A stretch of 64,000 nt of DNA from Rhina ancylostomus (lineage: Eukaryota). How positions within the stretch are numbered: the stretch's first letter is position 1; the number at the start of each line of letters is the position of its first letter. Under the pieces are notes generated by a model that saw only the letters and a program-made list of their open reading frames with translations, searched no databases and was not told where the DNA came from. The stretch spans positions 74,914,798-74,978,797 of the forward strand of contig JARFYF010000112.1 in the NCBI GenBank assembly GCA_030265395.1, written 5' to 3'. The translations under genes and the position numbers were made by a program. Of this stretch, positions 7,901 to 59,200 are shown piece after piece.

Positions 7901-10900
7901 GTTTTTGAAGATTATTTTCAGGGATAAAAGTCAATGTATGTTAATATATTACAGCAATTGTGTTTATCTTCATGTTATGAATAACCTTTTGCCTGTGATG
8001 TGGATGCTCAAAGAATCATTTGAACAAGTATATTACAGCGCTGTTTCTTTTCTCATCTATATTTGAATGATTGGGTCCTCAGAAACTCTTACTAGTTTTA
8101 TCATGAACATTTCCCTTAATCATAAACTGTTGTGACAGTTCTTGCCATTGCAGTTTTTCTTCATGCTCTTTTACCTTGCTCTTAACAATGGGTTTGGATA
8201 TTTTGGCGATAACTTGGATCCGTGTTCACTGGTCTGTAAGTTGTCTCTTATAAAGTAAGTGATATTACATTTGCCACTATCTATTTTACAGAGATTGTTG
8301 CAGAATTATAAGGAATTTCCTAATCTCTAAAAACACAGACATTTATCTTGAGTGCAGGTCCAGAATTGATAAGGCTCAACGCTACCAAGACATAATTTCC
8401 TCCCTTTACTATTCAAGAAAATTTACATTTTTCTCATAGTTACTATAATAATCTATGTGGGACAAGCTTTGTGCAAGATCAAAGAACTGGGTAAAAAGAG
8501 AACATGGTTTTATCTGAACAGGTGTTGGGCCAGGTGTCAACTAGTTCAATGTACTTTATTTTAACTTCCCATTCCTTCCCAACACCTTTTAAAGTTTTCT
8601 GCATTCTTCTGCTTGAGATGTAACAAAGTCCATGAATGTGGCATTTTGATTGGTTCTTTGTCCAGAATGACATTTTTATTGCTGAAAATTAAATCCTTTT
8701 TTGATGACAGGAAACCAGAACCCTGGCAGAAATTGCCAAGGCAGAACTTGATGATACTACACTGAGAGGGAGGCAGATAAGGATTCGATTTGCAACACAT
8801 GGTGCTGCTCTCACAGTGAAGAATCTTCCTCAGTTTGTATCAAATGAGTTATTGGATGAGGCATTTTCTATCTTTGGACCAGTGGAAAGAGCAGTGGTGA
8901 TCGTAGATGACCGTGGGAAACCAACTGGAAAAGGCATTGTAGAGTTTGCTGCAAAACCTGCTGCACGCAAAGCTCTGGACAGATGCACAGATGGTGCATT
9001 CTTGCTGACTGCGTAAGTAATGAATATCGAGCTTTACGTTGGGGATGAGTTTTAAGCAGGAATTCTGTAATTAACTTCTAATGTAATTTTGTCAATTCCA
9101 ACTCCATGATTTGTGAAGTCCATTGATGTATCTTTTAATGTGCAAGTGTTTAAAATTTCACCTGCTCTGGTGTGGAATTGATGCCTGTTTACACTAATTG
9201 TCTTGTTAGCTAATCTCAGTTAGTGTTGTAAACAGGTTTGTAAGCTTGGTTTGGGAGAGGAAAATGGATTTGATATCTTGTGTATGGATGATCTATTTAA
9301 AATTAGCTGCAAACAAAATGATAGTACGGTAGATTAGATGAACATTTATTTTAATTCTACCAGAGCTGTTTGCAGCAGATCAATTGCCATGCTTGATAAT
9401 TTATCTTTGTTTGACTGCCTTAAAAGTTGTCAAAAATTAGCTTTTGTCTGCAGTATGTATATGTATATCATTTGAGGTGGTCTTTTATTTTATTAGTATT
9501 GTCTTGATAGTATCAAACAAATTCCCACCTAATTTCAAAGACAGAGTGAAATTTCATTTTGCCTTTTCAAGTGTCCATGTTAAGTGGTATGGTTTATTTC
9601 CGAAGAGTTGAACTGAAAAGTTTGGGGTCCTTTTAAACCTGGGTAAGACCACACAGCACTGTGAATAGCCTTCATTTTGTCAAAAGGGTATAGAGGCAGT
9701 GGAGAAAATGCAGAGTAGACTTAAAAGGGTGATACTGAAGTTGGGAGGATATATACACAGTGGACAGGATGAACAAACTTTCTCACAATAAAGGCATTTA
9801 AAATTATGAAAGATCTTGATCAAGGAGTTACAGAAAGAAAGTTTCACTTGTGGAGAAGACTACATGTGGAGGCCATATATTCCCCATTTCCTTCACTATT
9901 TTAAAAGTGGTATTTTTCTTTGGGGGGGGGTGAGAGAGAGAATATGTTTTGTATTCATGGCTAGTGTAATGGGCTGATCATGCTGACTTCTGTGTTGAGC
10001 TGCTGAGTTCCTCCAGTATTTTGTTGTTCTTTCAAAATCTGAATAAAAGCCAGCATGAAAGTCTTGGATTTCATATAGAACTTGGAGCAGAATCCAGTCT
10101 TGCTGGGAGTCCCCTGTGTTGTCTTCATTGGATATTGTTGGACAAAGATTTAGGAGGAGGGGAAGGTGTTATATTTAATTGTAAAGTTTTTAAATGCCAA
10201 TGTTGGCTTAATTTTTGAAAAATGTAATCCAGGCACAGGGCATTGCTAATTGTCAGGGGAATTTCATGGATGGGTCCTGTTTACGGCAAGCTCAGCCTCC
10301 AAGTTATGGTCCTGGACTCAGATGTAGAGTTTCTTTTCCAGCCTGGATTAATGGGTAGCTGGACAAGGGACAGCTAGATCAGTTTTACTTAACTTTTTTG
10401 TTCTATAACCAAAAAAACTTTCCAAAAGTTCTACTTGGGTAGAGTTGTTAGAGCATAAAAGTTTTGTTTATTTGTCACAAGCTGAGAGTCTGCTGATATG
10501 AGTCGCTTGTTCCAATAATAAACATTTATCTCTTCTTGGAGAGGTAATGTCCATACAATTGAGGTAGATTGGCTATGGAAATAGTATTCTGTGTCCTCAC
10601 AAATGGATAGACTTTTCATATGGGATTCTTCAAGGAAAAGTACAAATGAAAATTAGGTTGTGTTTTTGTACATTATTACAAGATGATTTTTAACTTCCTC
10701 TGTTCTTTCCATTTTTTTGATCTTGTCACCTAAAGATTGAGAGGTGCAAAATATACCTCCTGTGCATTTCTTACTTCATATTTTGCATTTCATTTGGGCA
10801 TATGCAAATTGTCTTTCCAGTAGTAACCTATCCAGAAGTTGAACAATCAATTAAAATTTCCTGGAATGGTTCTGCCGAGCTGAGTCACAGGTTCACCTTA

Positions 10901-13900
10901 TATTGCTCCTTCTTTGAACTTGCATTCTGTGGACCACACTGGCTGCTGTAACCATAGGTGGCACTGGTGCTTTCAATATGCCACTAGTAACTTTTGGATC
11001 TGTCCTGCCATTGCATGCAAAGCATTTGCAGAAGTCTTTGAATTAAAATCAAACCATAGGAGCATAGATTAAGCAAACAGTTCTGAATATTTTGCATCCA
11101 TAATGAGGGTGGCAAGGGAGGGGGTAAAATGTTTCTAATTTAACAACTTTCACAAGCCAGGGAGCCAATTCCAACTGTGTTCCAAATTGAACTTCGTCAT
11201 ATGCCTTGTACTTCAGGACAACGGTTACTTTGTGTCTGATTTTGATTTGGGGAAAACTAACTAAAAATCTGCAATTGATAATTTGAAAATTTATCTTAAT
11301 TTCCCATTCCCAAAGTTGCATGAATGCTTTCCATATCAGAAATTTAGATATGTTTATAAAGTGGATAAATAAAAGGTAGTTTATGGTCACACACTCCATG
11401 TGGAAAATGAGAGATTGTGTGACGTTACTGAACAATGCACAAAATTTTCCTCCTTCCTTGCAGGAGGTCCTCAGGTTACATAACAGTTCCATTCATGAGA
11501 ATTGTTTATAAAATTAATTTTCTGTAAGTTTGAAACAAACAATTTCCCCTTAAAATCGTAATGTCAAATCTTTGGCTGTGGCAGCCTTTGGGAACTGATT
11601 TGCAAACAGTAGATTGGGGAAGGTCAGCATTGGGAATAGGAGTTGTTACCAGATGGTAAACTGTGACAGTTGTTTGTTGTATGGAGTGATGGGGTTGGGG
11701 AGAACTGATTCGCTAATCAGTCAGAAATTATCAGCGGTTTAATAAAAGGTGTCTGCGAATGAGAGATGGCTGGGGTTTTTTATAAATGTTTGATCTTGCC
11801 TGAAGGAGTTTGGAGAAGGCATTGGCTTTTCTTTGGGTGATCCCTGCATTGTTTCATTGTGAAGAGATTGGAGTACTGTACCTGAGAACAGAATCTGGGA
11901 GAGTTTGCATAAAGTCAGATTTTTTGTAAGTCAGATCCTCCATACCTGGGGACCACCATACTTCGTTTTCAATAGGTTCAGCAGAAATAATCTGATTGAA
12001 ATGACGAGTTGGAATGGAATTGGGTGAAAAACTATTTGATTGGGACATTTTATAAATTCAGAAATCAGTTCAATAGGATTGTTTCTCAGCTTGGTGTTTA
12101 TTATTTATAATAAAGCTAGCATCTTCAAGATTTGCTATCTTTATTCTCTTTTCCTTTTCCTAGGTTTCCAAGACCCGTGACTGTTGAACCATTTGATCAG
12201 TGTGATGATGAAGATGGCCTTCAAGAGAAACTGGTTCAGAAAAACCAACATTATCACAAGTAAGCGTTGAATGTAAATTGCTACCTCCCCATTTAAAATT
12301 CCTGTGTTTTAAAATTTTTAACTAGGACTTAAACAGTGTGTTTACGGATCTCTCTTGTCTTGGGCCTGCTTTTACAAAGCACACAGTGAAATATGTTTGG
12401 TTTAAATAAATTTTGCTTGGTTGAGTAACTTGGTGTGTAAAATAAGTTAGTGCATTTATTTTCTCATGAACTACTTGGGATTTCTACATGCTCCAGCCCA
12501 GCCATGTAAACACCAAATGAAATTGTGCTTGTTTACCCTTGGATTACATTTGTAGAAGTCCAATGGAATGGTTATGAGCTGGCACAAAAGGGGTAGAAAG
12601 AGAAAGTAGTTGAGGCAGGTACAATAACAACATTTAAAAGACATTTGGATAAGTAGGTGAATGGGAAAGGTTTAGAGGGTAATGGGCCAAATACGGGCAA
12701 ATGGGATGAGCTCAGGTAGGCACCTTAGTCAGCATGGATGAGTTGGGCCGAAGGGCCTGTGTTAATCTATGAATGGGGCTTGACTGGACCCATGTGGGAC
12801 TATTTCTTGAGGGCCAGGGGCCTAAGTGTTTCTACAGCCCCTCAATAAACATTTAAACTGTTTAAACTACACTGCCCCTCCTGCCCCACCACCATCCTAG
12901 AGCCATACATTTGCAAGAAGCCCCTAGCTGAAGGCCAATACTGCCACTGAAGCATGCGATCTTTCACAATTTCGTACTGATCTGAACGAATCAAGCAGTT
13001 GTCTACTGGGAAGTAAGTGAGATCTGGCCATAAAATTCAACCTGGTCCCACTCTCCAGGCTGCCGGTGGGGACAAAGGGTGACCACCTCTTCCCTCTCTT
13101 TTCAGATCTGTCTCACACACACGCCCCCCCACTCAGCAGACCTCAGGAGCTTCCAGGTCCTCCTGTAAAGTGCCACATGCACCAATGTTGAATAATTGCT
13201 TAGGGGCGAGCTCAGCAAGTGCTGCTGCCCCACAGCTCCAGAATTCCAGGTTCAATCCTGACCTCCGGTACTACCTGTGTGGAGTTAGCAGGTTCTTCCC
13301 CATAACTGCATGGGTTTCATTGGGGTGCTCCCGTTTCCTGCCCATCCCAAAGATATTCTTGTTTGGTAGTACAAAATGGAGATTGTTATATAGATGAGTG
13401 GTAAGAAAATCAGGATGCAGTTGAAGGGCATGTGAGAGAGAGAGAGAGAGTGGGTTGTAGGGAAATGGGGGGGGGGAGGAAATGGGATTGAATGGTTTTA
13501 TCCTGCAAGCTGGCAGTGACTCAAGGGCTGAATAGCCTCTTTCCATGCCTGAGTAATATGAAATAATCCTGAAAATGTCAGCTAGTTTACCAAAGATTCT
13601 TATTCGACATTTTCTTTCAAACACTTGGTTGCAACTTGTCAAGAATAGTAAAGACTTTCCTATGATTAGGTGACCAGAATCACAGATTGCTCTCTCAATA
13701 GGATCTCAGCCCAAGAATAACATTAGCTCCTAATTCTGCTTCCTGATGTTTCACAAGCTAGGTTGATATTGGTGGGGGCTGGGGATGGTTGGTGGAGGGG
13801 TAGCTAATGGCCCAGGGTCTGGTTATGTCAAACCTGCACTCCTTGTCCCACTTTCCAATTTTCTGCCATGTTCAGCAACCATTCCATAGCCCTCCTATGG

Positions 13901-16900
13901 CTGAGTATATTGTAATAACATGTGATTGTACTGGATTTCTTCTCCATCTTTCATGTCCTGGCAACATGGAAGGTTAGTGTATCCCACACATCCAGCATGG
14001 GGAGAAGATTTAACATTAAGATGACCAATTTCACTGTTGTAATTTTCTGCACAATGGAAACTGACCCAGTGGAAAATGGCAATCAAAGGAAACCTTATTT
14101 GAGACCTGTTGTTCCACTTAAAAGAATTAAAGATTTACATTTTTATAATATCTTCTAAGCATACCAGTGCCTTTACTTTCTTAGAAGGTTAAGGAGGTTC
14201 TGCTTGTCACCAAACACGTTAACAAACTTATACAGACGTACTGTTGAAAGCATCCTGCCTGGTTGCATCATGGTCTGGTAGGGCAATTCAAAGGTGCAGA
14301 ATGTAAGAAGCCACAGAGAGTGGTGGACTCTGCCCAATACACCATGGGCACATCCCCCTCTACCACTGGTAGTATCCGCAGGAAGCATTGCATCAAGAAG
14401 GCAACATCGATCATCAAAGATCCCTACCATCCGGGCCATGCCATCTTTTCACAGCTACCACCAGGCAGGAGGTACGAAAGCCTGAAGTCTCACACCACCA
14501 GCTTCAAGAACAGCTACGTCCCTTCAACCATTCAGTCGTTGAACCAACCAGCAAAACCCTAACCACTACAGTTTAGCAACACTACGACCACTTTGCACTA
14601 AAATGGACTTAGTTTTTTTGTTCTAATTGTGTTCTTTCTTGTAAAAATTGTGTATAATTTATGTTTGATTTATATTTTTCTTGAGAATGCTGCTTATTCT
14701 GTTCTGTAATTCTGCTTACACATGTCTGTGATGCTGCTACAAGTAGGTTTTTCATTGCACCTGTGCATACATGTATTTGTGCATATGACAATAAACTCGA
14801 CTTTGAATTTTAAGGCCTCAGAACCTCTCAAAGAATTTTACAACAAGTGAAATGCTTCTCTGATGTTTCGGCATTGTTGTAAACTCCCTTACTTATCATA
14901 GGAACTAACATTCTTCTTCCAGCTGGAACAAACAGGTAAGCAGGTCCTTAGTTTTTTTGCTCACCTCGCCCACACTACTGTGTTGGTCAATATTTCTCTG
15001 ATCATGTCTCAGAGAGCAGAACGTGAGCATGGAACCATAGTCTCCTTACCCAGTGAGAATGCTATGTAATTAGGCCAAGGGTTACAGTGAAGCAATATGC
15101 TGCTATGATATTCCACGCCTTAGCATCATCTACTCTAAAGAGGTAGCATTTAATCAGGTGTTCTCCTAATTGCAGAATTGCAACAAATAGGGAGCCGGAG
15201 ATCTCCTGGAGAGATCCTCCTAAGACATCGTACTATTAAAAATGTTCACAAAGCAGTTATTAAAATGTTAATGTGGGTAAGATGTTATAACATTGTAAGC
15301 ACAACTCGTTTACAAGACCATTACATACAGGAGGTCCAGGTTCGCCCATCATTCCAGTATTTCCACAGTGACCAGGCTGACCCGGTTTTCCTCTCATACC
15401 CGCAGGCCCAGGATCACCCGGATCTCCTTTCTCTCCTGTTGAGGGGAAAATACACAAATATTTCAATGTCCAATGCCTTGTTCATCCACTTAACAGTAAC
15501 TGCATCTTAAAAGTATTCAACTGAATGTGAAGCAATTTGATTCTTTTCTGAGATGTGTGGGGGTGCTTTCTAAGCATTCCTATGCTTTAGTGGGAAGTTT
15601 TTTATATCAAAAGATTGCACAGAATAAATTACCCTCATCCTCATACATAATATTTGTGGTTGCAGCCCAGCAATCTCACCCAGAACTATATATATTTTAT
15701 CAATAGTTATTGCTGCTCCACACAATGCAAGGTAATTCTCTGCACCATCACTTAAAAAAACAAAAAGTACTGTGACTCCCCTTATACAGTTCTCAGTTGG
15801 CTACTTCTTTTCCATTGGTACAGTATACTCTATAAGTTAATTCTTCTGTTATACTAGTCGTACATTCATCCTGCTAACTCATTCTACTTACAGGCTAAAT
15901 TTTTGCATCACACTTTCAATTTCGATTATTTATGGGCCTCCTCACCATCCTTCAAACAGATTGGAAGTCCAGTGCTAAAGGCTTGTAGATCAAGATGTAT
16001 GTGTGAAGACAGCATCTATCATTAAGCTGATGACTGAGAAATTCTATTAGGCTTTTGTGCAATATGGGATTGAAATGAATCAAAAATGTGATTGTTATGT
16101 CATGCACGCGCTGTCCTGTTAAGCAAGATACTGCTCACTTCAAAGTAGGCTTTAACTAGAGGGCTTTGGCATTATTTAAAGTGAACAAATCTTCCTTGAT
16201 CTGTTGCTGGGGAGTCCAAGGGATCCATCTCTTTCACGTTGGTCCTCCTTCATAAAATTTTCTTGGTATTCACTCTCTGCTCATTCTCTCACCAGCACTA
16301 CATCCTCACACCTCACAAATCTCTCTCCATTCAGCCCTCCACCTATCAATTGCCAACCCATGTGACCAGAATGTGATCTCCTAAAAGTGATAAACAAAAT
16401 GCGGATGCTGAAATTCTGCAATACAAACAAAAAATGCTGCAAGTGCCCAGCAGGTCAGGCAGCATCTGTGGAAAGAGAAACATTGATGTTTCAGGTCTGA
16501 GTACTTTCATTAGAAACTGTCCCTGTGGCCCCTATGCATTTTGGAACAAGCTTCTCTCTACCCCCTCGGTCCTGCCTCCATCACCCCANNNNNNNNNNNN
16601 NNNNNNNNNNNNNNNNNNNNNNNNNNNNNNNNNNNNNNNNNNNNNNNNNNNNNNNNNNNNNNNNNNNNNNNNNNNNNNNNNNNNNNNNGTGCTCTCTACA
16701 AAGTCTATAAAGCTTTACCTCAACTGAAGTAACTCCTGGTTGAATAAGTTATGCAGTGTGTAGTAGTTTACTTGTTATTCTTGTACTCTATTCCACAGAA
16801 TTTGTCATGCATAAATAGAAGCTGAAGAACTTGAATGTAGAATTAGCTGCGCCATTCTTTTCCTCCCATGTGTTGGTAATTGATTGGGAGAGCAAGTTTT

Positions 16901-19900
16901 GCACTTCTGAGCTGTTGACTACTCAAAAAAAAAAGGATCAAAATGAAAATGCATTTAATGTCAAGTACAGTCTAAGTTCTTAGTTTTCTCTGCTGTAAAT
17001 CATTCTACATTAATTTGCACATTTCACTTAATTTGCCAACTCCTGTGCAATGGTAAATTGGTTTATTATTGTCACATGTACTGAGGTACAGTGAAAAACT
17101 TTGTTTTGTTTGCCATCCATACAGATCATTTCATCACATTAGTGTATTGATGTAGTACAAGGAAAACAATACAGAATGGAAAATAGTGTTAGAGTTGCCG
17201 AGAAAGTGCAGTGCAGGCAGACAGAATGGTGCAAGGCCCTAACGAGGCTGATTGTGAGGTCGAGAGTCCATTCTTATTGTACTAGGGGACCGTTCAATAG
17301 TCTTACAACAGCAGGATCAAAGCTGTCCTTTAGCCTGGTGGTACGTGCTTTCAGGCTTTTGTATCTTCTGCCCAATGGGAGGGAGGAGAAGAGAGAGTGA
17401 GTGGGGTCTTTAATTTGTTGGCTGTTTTACCGAGGCAGTATAGTATAGACAAAGTCCATGGAGGGGAGGCTGNNNNNNNNNNNNNNNNNNNNNNNNNNNN
17501 NNNNNNNNNNNNNNNNNNNNNNNNNNNNNNNNNNNNNNNNNNNNNNNNNNNNNNNNNNNNNNNNNNNNNNNNACCATAGAGAAAGAATTACTGTCACTTG
17601 TTTTAGCCTTGCAGCATTTCAGTGTATATGTTTGCACCGCTAAGAAACCTTTGACTGTGTATACAGATCATAGCCCGTTAGGTGTTTCTGAGCCGAGTGA
17701 AAAACAAGAACAGAAGGTTGTTAAACTCGATGGTGCATCTATTAAAAACTGGTGAGGGTCAAAGGGGACGTCAAATTTCTTTAGCCTTCTGAGGAAGTAG
17801 GGGAGTCTGATTTTTCTTTTTCTAGTGGCTACCTGTTAAACTAGCAAAATAAATGGTGGGGGGAAGAGGAGTACAGGGATTTTTTGATTGATAATTCATG
17901 CCGTGCATATAAGTTGGTAAATGCACAAGGAGTACAGTGATGTTTACTCTTAGTTCCTGTCTCCTAGTATACTACGTTGTAAGTTTTTCATACTTGATAA
18001 TTTTTAAGGGAACGAGAGCAGCCACCAAGATTTGCCCAGCACGGGACATTTGAGTATGAATATGCCATGAGATGGAAAGCACTGCTTGAAATGGAGAAAC
18101 AACAACAAGAGCAAGTGGACAGAAATGTGAAAGAAGCACGAGAAAAACTGGAAGTAGAATTGGAAGCTGCACGTCATGAGCACCAAGTCATGCTGATGAG
18201 GCAAGGTATGTTGAGAAGTGAGCCATATACTTTTCTTTCTCTCCTTCTAAAGCTATTGACTTCTGGTAAACAGGTTTGGAATATAGAACATAGAACAGTA
18301 CAGCACAGGAACTGGCCCCTTTGGCCCACAATGTTATGCTAAACTAATTTAATACCTCCCTTCTGCCTACACAATGCCTATATCCATCCATTCTCTGCAC
18401 ATTCATGTCTATCTGAGAGCCTCTTAAACACTTGTTTGTGTTGTATTTGCCCCCACTACTACCCCTGCCAGGCACCCACCACTCTGTGTTTGTAAAAGAA
18501 ATACTTGCCCCATACATCTCCTTTGAACTTGCTCCTTCTGGCTTATATGCATGCCCTCTAGTGTTATGCATTTTGACCCTGGGGGAAAAAGTAATGACTG
18601 TCTACTCTAGGCCTCTCATACTATTTTAAACTTCTATCATATGAACAGTGGATCAGTTTTGTTATCCCTTAATTCTATTCTCCTGTCCTCTCTTCCAACT
18701 CTCCCTTTTAACTTTAATGTGTCTGGCTACCCATTGTTGTGACTGAACTAAACTGAGCCACGTGGAAGCTGTAACTGGGAGAGACAGANNNNNNNNNNNN
18801 NNNNNNNNNNNNNNNNNNNNNNNNNNNNNNNNNNNNNNNNNNNNNNNNNNNNNNNNNNNNNNNNNNNNNNNNNNNNNNNNNNNNNNNNNNNNNNNNNNNN
18901 NNNNNNNNNNNNNNNNNNNNNNNNNNNNNNNNNNNNNNNNNNNNNNNNNNNNNNNNNNNNNNNNNNNNNNNNNNNNNNNNNNNNNNNNNNNNNNNNNNNN
19001 NNNNNNNNNNNNNNNNNNNNNNNNNNNNNNNNNNNNNNNNNNNNNNNNNCCCTCTTCCTTTCCAGTTTGATGAAGGGTCTTAGCCCAAAATGTCGACAGT
19101 TTATTTCCTTCCATGGATGCTGCCTGACTTGCTGAGTTCCTCCAGTACTTTTTGTGAATTGCTCCAGATTCCAGCATCTGCAGAATTTTTTTTGTGACAC
19201 CTAAAATATACCTCTTTTGTCACTGTTGAGGGATGGCTCTGTGATCATACAACTAGCCAGAATATTAAGTGACAAAACAGACCTGTCCTGAACTGTGTTT
19301 TAAGTCGTAGGGATATGCCTTTAACAATTCATTGATACAGTAGATGGCCACTTAATGCCTTCCCTGATCTCATCCTGAAGTTTTCAAAGCCCACCAATTA
19401 ACATGAACATTTGTCTATTGCCTTCCCCTGTGTAGTTTCAAGGAGATAAAATCAGAATGTCCCACACCCAGTGATTGGATTCAATGACCCCAAAGCATCA
19501 GTTAAAGTTAAGTTGTGAATAGATTTTGTTTCTTAAAGACTGGTTCTCATTTTAATTAATATCTGCTATCTATAATTTAATAACTCCAGAATAATCCCTA
19601 ACACCCATCCCACCCAGTCTATGAACGGTGAAAGATTTTGTAGTTCCTAAGTTTTGGTTTGTGTTGCTGACTTTTTTTCAGCTGCTCCATTGAGTAAGTC
19701 TTCGAAGGGATTTTTTTTATTGTCAAACTCAGTACATTGCCTCTCCACAAACTAGAGTTCCACCAATAGATTGTTGCTTTTATGTAATATATTGGGAATT
19801 TTCATAAGTTTTCTTTCAGACATTATTTTAAATCTGTATCCTCTATCATTGAACCTTGTGCCACTGTTTACTTTATCTGAAACCTCCATGATTTTTGAAC

Positions 19901-56200: not shown

Positions 56201-59200
56201 CTTCTCTCATTGTTTGCTGAACCATATTGGAATACCATCCTTCTCATCTTCTAACACTGACTACAAAGTACTTAAGTGCCTTGTAAAGCCTTTTGGACAT
56301 TTTGATGTGATAGAATCTAAATGAATGCAAGTTCTTTCTTTGCAAGGGGACACAGTTCAAGCACTGCTAAAGATATTCATGAATACACAGGAAGGAAAGC
56401 TTTGGATAAATAAAGAACATTTATTTGTATGTTTTTTTTCTCTTGGGTTGGACTTAAAAAAAAACTAAGAAAACCAGTTACTTCAAATACTGATTCAAAT
56501 TGTAAACATTAGTTACAGCAACATTACAGAAGAATTATCAACTGCAGTGTCAGAATTTCATGTTTATCACTGACTTCAGGGTGAGTTAATGTGAAAAGGA
56601 CTTGTGTACTCTGCCTCCCTATATCACTAACCCTACTGTGCCACCTCTTTTGCAAAACTACTTGCTTCCAGATACTGATACTTTTCTCTCAGAACTGTTG
56701 TAATGTGGAAAACTTAGATTTGATTCTGCAGTGTTACCAAGCTATAGTCTTGTTTGCTTTTGCTAGCCACCACCACCCCCCATCCACTGTAATTGGCAAA
56801 TCACTATAATCCAATTAATTACTATGCCCATCACAGTTTTGCTGTATCCTTCCCTTCTTAAAAAAAACAATATTAGATAGTGGATTAGGTAATGACCAGC
56901 ACCAGTCATTTGTGATGTGCTTCCTTTTGCTTGTTTAATGTGTTAAATTGATGGACATGCCCATTATTTGTAAAAGATCAGTGATACAGCCAAAAGGAGA
57001 CTTTCCCAAGTATTTTGGCCAATATTTGTTGCTTGTCTCAAAACAGATTTAATTGCTTGCTTATTATATTTCCGCATTGTGCCACGTTGCTGTGTCCAAA
57101 TTATCTACTGTTTTATTTAACATACTAACAATAACTATAAAAAAAATTAAGCTGGCAAATGCACTGGGCAGTTCTGACATTATAAAAGGCATTCCAATAA
57201 GTGCATTATTTTGGTGTTGATTATTTCATGATCCTTTAATTTTGATTCTTAAAGCCAGAATAAAATAGAGATTGGTAAATGTGACATAAATGCTAAGTAG
57301 AGTACAGAATTGAACTATTAAAATACCATGTAATAAAACGGAAGTTAATTTCTCATACTGTTACTGTATGGTATATTAAATAACACCTGTAGAACAGCGT
57401 ATTCTTGAGTTGTGTTTAATTATATTTGTTGGGGCAGATTTTTTTGGTACTGATTTCCTGTATGCACATTTAACTCTTATCAAATATTTTAAAATTGTGA
57501 AGAATATAGGGCAAGTGAAATTTACAGAGTAACTTCTTCCTTCAAATTAAAAATCTTATTAAGAAGCCAAAGGTCCTTGGTGGCAACCTGTGTGCAGGGT
57601 GAGGTTTGGGACTTCCACAATAGCTTGACTGATTTTCTATGATCAGCTGATTTAATGTTGGATGGCTTAGGTTAAAACTGCCAGGAATTGAGTTTCCGAT
57701 TAAGAATGCATGTGTATCCTGCTTCAGGATTTAGTGTTAATAGCATTTTAAATTACTGGCCAATTCAGATCAATTAAGGGAATGAAATCACAAGCAGCAT
57801 GGAACAGTGCCATGCATGGTGGAAATTTTGTTTGCTTACAAGTTGAAGATTCTTCTGCAAAAGTTAAGTCAAAGAAAGATGGTCTATATGTTGAGCAAAA
57901 GCTGAAGATTCATGATTACAGCACAAAGGAAATGGAGGGTGGTAACTATAGCATTGAATCATAAGTTAGATGACTTATTATCTAACAGTATTTACCTAAC
58001 AATGTTGTGAACGTGAAAGAATGCAGCTCAATATAGTGACAGAATAATGCACTGCACATTACTGTTGTAAATTTGATGATGGTATTTTTTATCAGTGACA
58101 ATGTTATGGCAAACTTTCTGAAACATGAAGGATACCATACTTACTATAATTCCTGTTTCTATTACATTTCCTATGTTGTAATTTGTATCGATTGGGTGAT
58201 TTTTATTAAACCGGTAAATTGTAACTTAAAATTCTTTCCAACAGTAGAGGTTCTGAATTTCCTGACTGGGGTTGTCTTCACTCGCTGCCTTTGTTGCACA
58301 AAATTTAAGTGCTTTGGATCTGCATGGCCCATCACACTGACGTAGACCATCCCAGAGCTAAATGGTGAGGTGCTGAGTTTTTCTGATGATCACCACTATC
58401 CCCTGGTGCTTCTGATAGGTGATGATGGATGGGTGAGATCAAGCCTGACTATAAAACTCCAATGAAAATGTTCAACTAACAAAACACTTCCCAGCTTTGC
58501 TATTTGTCAAACATGTATATAAACTATAACCTGCCTTATTCTTTCATCCCTGCTTAGATGAACGGAAACCAGTTTTAACTAAGAATGGATTTGTCATTGT
58601 AAATACTGGGGAATCTTTGGAAGTTCCTGCTCCTCCACTGGACTTCATGGGTAGTGCATTGACAGACTACAACCAGGAAATTGGTAGCAGAGCTAGGCCA
58701 GTACGGCTGCAGCTTGCACATACCCATCTGCAACCTGAAATTTACCAGCACTTGCATGTAAAGAACTACTAGCAAAATCAGCACCAATGACATTTATTTG
58801 ACATGTATAGGGAAACTTCCACCAACAACAGAAAATATTCTACTAGAGTAGAAATATGGAGGATGAATTTTAATATATAGTTTTGCAGGGCTTTGCAACC
58901 ACTTCAAGGAATATTCACAGTTGTTTGATTTAAGCATGTGGGCATCTGTGAAATTGAACTAGGAACCTGAGTTCATTGTATGGGGAAAGGTTTGTGCCCT
59001 CAAGTATCATTGATGTTAAATTGTGAGAAGATGAAAAATGATGGCACTCAGTAGAAAGTGCCATCTCAGTTCTCTCAAATAGATGTTACACGATGGTGCA
59101 TTTTTAGGGAAAATGTAACAATTCCATGAAATGGTACCCTGTATTCATACCAAAAGGCAAGGATTTCGTTTGTATACTTGCTAATGGCCTTGTGTACTTG

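Follow-up and report, generated by a model that had tools for sequence, protein, structure and literature searches.

We analysed a stretch of 64,000 nucleotides (nt) from the 2.2-gigabase genome of Rhina ancylostomus (C112:74914798-74978797, forward strand; below, the window, whose coordinates are used throughout) and found a collagen-type Gly-X-Y exon with intact splice sites lying antisense in an intron of the gene NONO. Judged from its sequence and from related organisms, this exon, here called the helix exon, is probably the remnant of a collagen-domain gene that stood at this place and is likely dead. We propose that a multi-exon collagen-domain gene antisense in NONO would have died before several related species split, and that the helix exon would be its last readable piece. 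The exon would have no present function and would be decaying neutrally, and NONO splicing would be undisturbed by it because it lies on the opposite strand. It may thus be seen as a small genomic fossil, a collagen exon within a housekeeping gene that marks a lost gene. Nested antisense genes and unitary pseudogenes occur in vertebrate introns; the present case is like them in its strand, in its position within host introns and in a neutral decay common to related species, and unlike unitary pseudogenes in that no functional orthologue was identified here. The class of the lost gene is beyond confident reading, and its leading single candidate, a very divergent fibrillar type, is put forward only tentatively.

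15329..15435, minus strand: Gly-X-Y exon of 107 nt with 12 triplets, starting in phase 1 and ending in phase 0; identified by Pfam, by a decay-aware scan and by its AG/GT ends.

An earlier note on this DNA had described an intact exon of 12 Gly-X-Y triplets, and this description was borne out. The minus strand from 15436 to 15329 encodes 12 perfect Gly-X-Y triplets including 8 prolines, with an AG just before base 15435 (AG/GA, the slash marking the boundary) and a GT just after 15329 (CCT/GT). Pfam assigned the exon to its Collagen family (PF01391) with 28.5 bits against a cut-off of 27.2 (E value 1.3e-6), placing it among Gly-X-Y sequences, and the decay-aware collagen scan gave it 70.9 bits, the next best score in 11400-15500 being 12.0 bits. 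Throughout the surrounding 544 kilobases (kb), with the window in the middle and 27,897 N included, all other Gly-X-Y runs have at most 5 triplets and at most 1 proline. Since the helix exon is the sole run of more than 5 triplets in these 544 kb, it is not part of a nearby intact collagen. The same scores, together with the AG and GT exactly at the ends, refute the idea that the run arose by chance; apart from weak flanking scores nothing favours that idea, and we give it practically no credence. Own-genome DNA searches (self only, skipping common words) with 15250-16390 and 10250-11500 returned the window only, so the sequence is single-copy and has no parent copy in its own genome, as a unitary pseudogene should.

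The host was correctly named in the earlier note. The plus-strand DBHS gene has NONO as its best PDB match (E 6.6e-50, exon 8711-9012), and NONO is the closest family member, with 170 bits vs 163.5 and 160.7 for SFPQ/PSPC1. An exon mapped at about 1636-1985 on the plus strand is followed by three others:

8711..9012, plus strand: NONO exon, RRM region; best PDB match NONO, boundaries mapped.
12164..12259, plus strand: NONO exon with the helix exon on one side and the proposed C-propeptide pieces on the other; boundaries mapped.
18009..18205, plus strand: NONO exon closing the intron around the helix exon; boundaries mapped.

Further plus-strand NONO exons, with approximate boundaries, were read in translation at about 21100, 23300, 27400 and 38700, up to the stop codon. 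Genes that we take to be PSPC1-like and SFPQ-like, going by diagnostic residues, are located on other contigs (C7 and C55), and no nested collagen exon was found in the 60 and 80 kb inspected at these loci. The region 10300-16380 contains zero N, and Rfam gave 0 matches within 9000-18300.

Evidence on the state of the exon came from related organisms. Parts of 15250-16450 are covered by 14 sequencing runs from six organisms, none of them recorded as RNA; four of the runs were compared there and three in the C-terminal stretch; cover from two was patchy, and the informative relatives are three (C, D and F). In organisms C and D a single contig covers all 1.2 kb, with 69 and 76 differing letters respectively, and F has 53 in 559 bases. 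Within the helix exon C and D show 7 substitutions that change 6 codons; all six alter the residue, and no glycine is hit. Among 40 of the 113 substitution rows, organism C is as densely substituted in the two candidate exons (7 changes in the 107 bases of one, 8 in the 102 of the other) as in the introns (9 changes in 243 bases and 14 in 199). The indels that break the frame are not the same in each lineage: C and D have one of 1 nt at 15731, D has one of 10 nt at 15677 (15677-15679 is also hit in C), C has one of 7 nt at 16304, and F has one of 59 nt at 16244-16304. Additional lineage-specific indels lie in 10280-11130, and the C-terminal stretch shows a like pattern in its three runs. Neutral change with frame-breaking lesions, the signature of a pseudogene, is thus present in the three informative relatives, and it suggests a neutral decay begun before the relatives' species split. 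The helix exon has kept its frame and every one of its 12 glycines, which argues that its decay is small, probably under about 10% per site: with 5% decay the chance of such survival would be 0.10, with 10% it would be 0.011 and with 20% only 0.0001, for an assumed indel ratio and with no correction for the exon having been noticed because it is intact.

An exon in this condition might still be used in an unannotated antisense transcript that yields a small collagen-domain protein, as it retains an unbroken frame, every glycine, 4 CpG and the splice sites at both ends. Set against this are the six of six changed codons that alter the residue in C and D, the damaged upstream donor in the same two relatives and the lack of any partner collagen exon within 544 kb, and we hold continued use to be very improbable.

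The nearest relatives of the exon in sequence were sought at the protein level. Its best own-genome match is a type IV collagen exon (56% identity, E 0.0074), likewise of 107 nt and running from phase 1 to phase 0, and bird MARCO proteins contain 36-residue segments that share the helix exon's first seven and last six residues. These likenesses, and the fact that no second helix exon is detectable, would fit a single exon that was copied in from a collagen-domain gene elsewhere, whether type IV or scavenger-receptor-like, and never belonged to a gene here, the flanking likenesses being chance. However, the genome holds no DNA parent, 20-22 identities in 36 residues are common among collagens, the MARCO proteins were retrieved through those very shared words, and a phase-compatible open exon lies 244 nt upstream; we consider such a stray copy improbable. 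The type IV gene that holds the matching exon is further unlike the present locus in that its helix exons number in the dozens, and no counterpart to any of them was seen here. At C7:84.70-84.76 megabases (Mb) a type IV collagen gene was read, many of whose exons are phase 1.

15680..15781, minus strand: candidate upstream exon with an open frame and a phase 1 donor, from sequence reading; its match is reached by 49/2072 decoys.

The earlier note had placed an exon at 15780-15680, and this proposal stood in part. The frame is open and the phase of the 15781-15680 donor suits the helix exon across the 244-nt gap. Joining the two exons would give YIVLG-EKGDPG, which is close to FYIVKGEKGDKG at the helix start of the amphioxus clade C protein P0119, but this pre-helix match was equalled by 49 of 2072 decoys in a test picked after the match had been seen. 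In C and D the upstream exon has suffered a frameshift and donor damage. An acceptor-like site following a T run, at 15752-15751, is confined to the species of the window, as the base there differs in C, D and F.

Several observations weigh against a lost multi-exon gene here. Apart from the helix exon, no part of such a gene stands out statistically, and the case for several exons depends on two splice sites and one phase-compatible neighbour. Protein searches with the helix exon, the upstream exon and a read-through frame revealed no intact orthologue, each being a weak negative: the word-seeded helix-exon search gave 21 matches among 282 candidates with a top identity of 62%, the word-seeded upstream-exon search gave 5 candidates, none scoring, and a HMMER search of 1.84 billion representatives, for which one read-through frame of 15672-16400 served as query, gave one unrelated repetitive match. 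The counts in relatives draw on 40 of 113 substitution rows in 15250-16450 and on 40 of 56 substitution and 12 of 21 indel rows in the C-terminal stretch. Finally, every glycine is preserved in C and D as well as in the window, and the 4 CpG that the exon retains amount to 0.49 of expectation vs 0.20 in the region, which fits a recent loss and also residual selection.

A fibrillar identity had been suggested in the earlier note, which assembled a TSPN/LamG-like exon, degenerate helix exons and C-propeptide pieces into a nested, decayed gene with clade C affinity (COL24A1/COL27A1). What endured of this proposal is a dead collagen-type sequence antisense in NONO, supported by the helix exon together with the neutral change seen in related organisms; the pieces that would make it a clade C-like fibrillar gene with TSPN and C-propeptide fall within or at the edge of decoy ranges. 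In Pfam, three read-through frames of 10101-16580 and the candidate exons gave the Collagen match alone, with none to COLFI and none for the proposed TSPN exon. The degenerate helix exons could not be recovered: none rises above the decoy rate of 0.93 matches of at least 12 bits per 3.9 kb (best 12.0 bits). Between the helix exon and the proposed C-propeptide 2888 of 3859 bases are non-repeat. A long multi-exon triple helix, a trait of fibrillar collagens, is absent from this locus, which has a single 12-triplet exon, and the sole basis for a putatively short helix is this absence of further exons.

16139..16380, minus strand: proposed TSPN exon ending FE/GT; 55-116/500 decoys score as high, no Pfam match, 5' edge adjoins a repeat.
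16381..16516, no strand assigned: interspersed repeat supplying the apparent TSPN acceptor; own-genome loci totalling 895 kb hold up to 49 copies, and each of the four aligned runs has a depth spike.
12599..12772, no strand assigned: interspersed repeat; up to 41 copies in the same 895 kb.
13212..13370, no strand assigned: interspersed repeat; up to 46 copies in the same 895 kb.
14173..14810, no strand assigned: interspersed repeat; up to 8 copies in the same 895 kb.

Profiles were built from clade C sequences taken from 100 proteins, too-short ones omitted (63 C-propeptides and 23 TSPN domains), and from own-genome clade A and B exons, and scoring was by frameshift- and intron-aware alignment against equal-length decoys. 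The proposed TSPN exon gave scores matched by 55, 86, 116 and 89 of 500 decoys under four profiles, and no Pfam TSPN match. Its FE/GT end, matched in the earlier note to the TSPN intron position of COL5/11-type genes, proved to be a common codon pattern: of 548 stretches of 1.5 kb, 67 contain it. The acceptor AG of the proposed exon coincides with the edge of the repeat 16381-16516, which on the minus strand terminates in a pyrimidine run and AG and so mimics a splice acceptor.

10307..11470, minus strand: proposed COLFI remnants; homology suggestive at best, no Pfam or PDB match.

The quoted peptides themselves are real, since all 21 of 21 strings checked (including a few added ones) translate in the region, those of the earlier note at the positions it gave. 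Their reading as a C-propeptide gained marginal or null scores. A PDB search with three C-terminal frames found no COLFI chain, and tblastn with own-genome clade C exons found nothing at the proposed sites. End-to-end forward scores for the clade C C-propeptide were -1.9 to -2.8, matched by 12, 15, 15 and 20 of 340 decoys and by 17, 14, 16 and 24 of 150 shuffles. Frameshift-aware Viterbi alignment gave a score reached by 3-5 of 64 decoys, and the CpG-corrected local forward score was reached by 8-18 of 272 decoys, or by 45-68 of 272 under a stricter background. The ME at 11394 has no in-phase GT after it. Six COLFI profiles placed the region in the upper 2.5-16.5% of decoys (5 to 33 of 200, best 5/200); clade A (12/200) and clade B (19/200) did as well as the clade C sets (16, 19 and 33/200), so that no preference for clade C was seen.

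A power simulation, in which genes were decayed by substitutions and indels (20 per setting), indicated what such scores can mean. Simulated clade C copies had median scores of 184, 120 and 40 at 10, 20 and 35% decay, far above the observed -2.7, and a close COL24A1/COL27A1-like pseudogene is therefore excluded. A 40%-identical ancestor gave medians of 27, 7 and -7 at the same levels of decay, and a 30%-identical ancestor 7, -3 (-2.8, equal to the observed score) and -8. A very divergent fibrillar gene could thus escape detection, as a decayed COLFI domain of 30% identity could be missed.

Such a gene would be a special case of the lost collagen-domain gene: a compact fibrillar gene with TSPN, very short helix and C-propeptide, extending from about 16.4 to 10.3 kb, interleaved with NONO exon 12164-12259 and descended from an ancestor about 25-30% identical to clade C. 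We rate it as possible but doubtful. Whether that NONO exon lay inside an intron of the lost gene depends on the C-propeptide pieces being genuine. In its favour, the motifs are collinear, on one strand and in the correct order, and all six COLFI profiles rank the region high. The pre-helix residues match amphioxus clade C, and according to the substitution rows relatives C and D have CAA at the window's stop 10900-10898 and HPQL where the profile has DPNL; these are weak and post hoc. The 30%-identical ancestor at 20% decay reproduces the observed score, although such decay is hard to reconcile with an intact helix exon. The non-significant TSPN and the type IV exon that shares the helix exon's length and phases also count against it.

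The seven blocks hand-picked in the earlier note scored 49.9 vs a decoy mean of 38.0, a value reached by 0 of 426 decoys and 0 of 300 shuffles (z about 4.6). These blocks had been picked after the sequence was seen. Under 150 random conserved-block sets the region was ordinary, with 57 to 103 of 300 decoys as high, and taking the best of the 150 sets gave z 4.5 in 11 of 300 decoys. Chains of objectively chosen blocks were equalled by 149, 152 and 267 of 426 decoys. In the block-chain test two of the seven landed elsewhere than at their original sites, and the best end-to-end path differs from the one in the earlier note and was equalled by 99 and 35 of 220 GC-matched decoys.

Both COL24A1 and COL27A1 are present elsewhere in the own genome. 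The locus resembles clade C in a hydrophobic run followed by G-x-K-G-D-x-G at the helix start (seen in the own COL27A1-like gene and in amphioxus P0119, and at the presumed start here) and in a weak ordered likeness of motifs downstream. By contrast, the two own-genome clade C genes have TSPN and variable region in one large open frame, without an intron at FE or at the first glycine, which counts against the fibrillar model, and they span at least 200 kb with many helix exons. Clade B genes of the COL5/COL11 type and a divergent gene on contig C56 have a TSPN exon that ends FE/GT and is followed by an exon starting with Gly, as proposed here; unlike the proposed gene, their next exon ends in phase 0, and a profile of both scored the window at chance (86/500 decoys). 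The phase 1 intron expected after the exon following FE in clade B was not seen in the two own-genome genes checked, whose phase 0 end counts against the fibrillar reading.

Divergent fibrillar genes do occur in the own genome. The one at C56:32.16-32.37 Mb (minus strand) is fibrillar-type and intact in the exons read, which are only part of the gene. It has the TSPN exon ending FE/GT, helix exons and a C-propeptide unlike own-genome clade A, B and C exons, and it could raise the family above its usual 11-12 members.

According to the available portion of PMC8887668, jawed vertebrates have 11 or 12 fibrillar collagen genes, and a clade C collagen from hagfish (accessions OK655922 and OK655923) branches outside both COL24A1 and COL27A1. 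That portion does not contain the word NONO, and the available portion of PMC13188829 held nothing relevant. No description of a collagen nested in NONO was found in the literature searched, in which coverage of subscription journals is incomplete. In its boldest form, which we regard as unlikely, the fibrillar reading would mean that an additional fibrillar-type collagen of miniature size, made up of a TSPN domain, some 13 Gly-X-Y triplets and a divergent C-propeptide, formerly existed in cartilaginous fishes, antisense in NONO and interleaved with one NONO exon, that it was lost in the ancestor of the species group, and that it may survive intact in other sharks, skates and chimaeras. If the fibrillar reading were true, a lost branch would be added to this family of 11 or 12 jawed-vertebrate genes, and the place to look for it would be given.

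Other collagen loci were met in the own genome. One C-propeptide exon each was found at C63:2.08 Mb, C94:0.654 Mb and C66:10.787 Mb, all matching one catshark clade C protein (P0023); the three contigs likely carry one COL24A1 gene split by assembly. The best named match of an own-genome collagen exon was a catshark protein (75%). Within the window, 58530-58772 on the plus strand has an 80-residue open frame that resembles an exon of a neighbouring gene.

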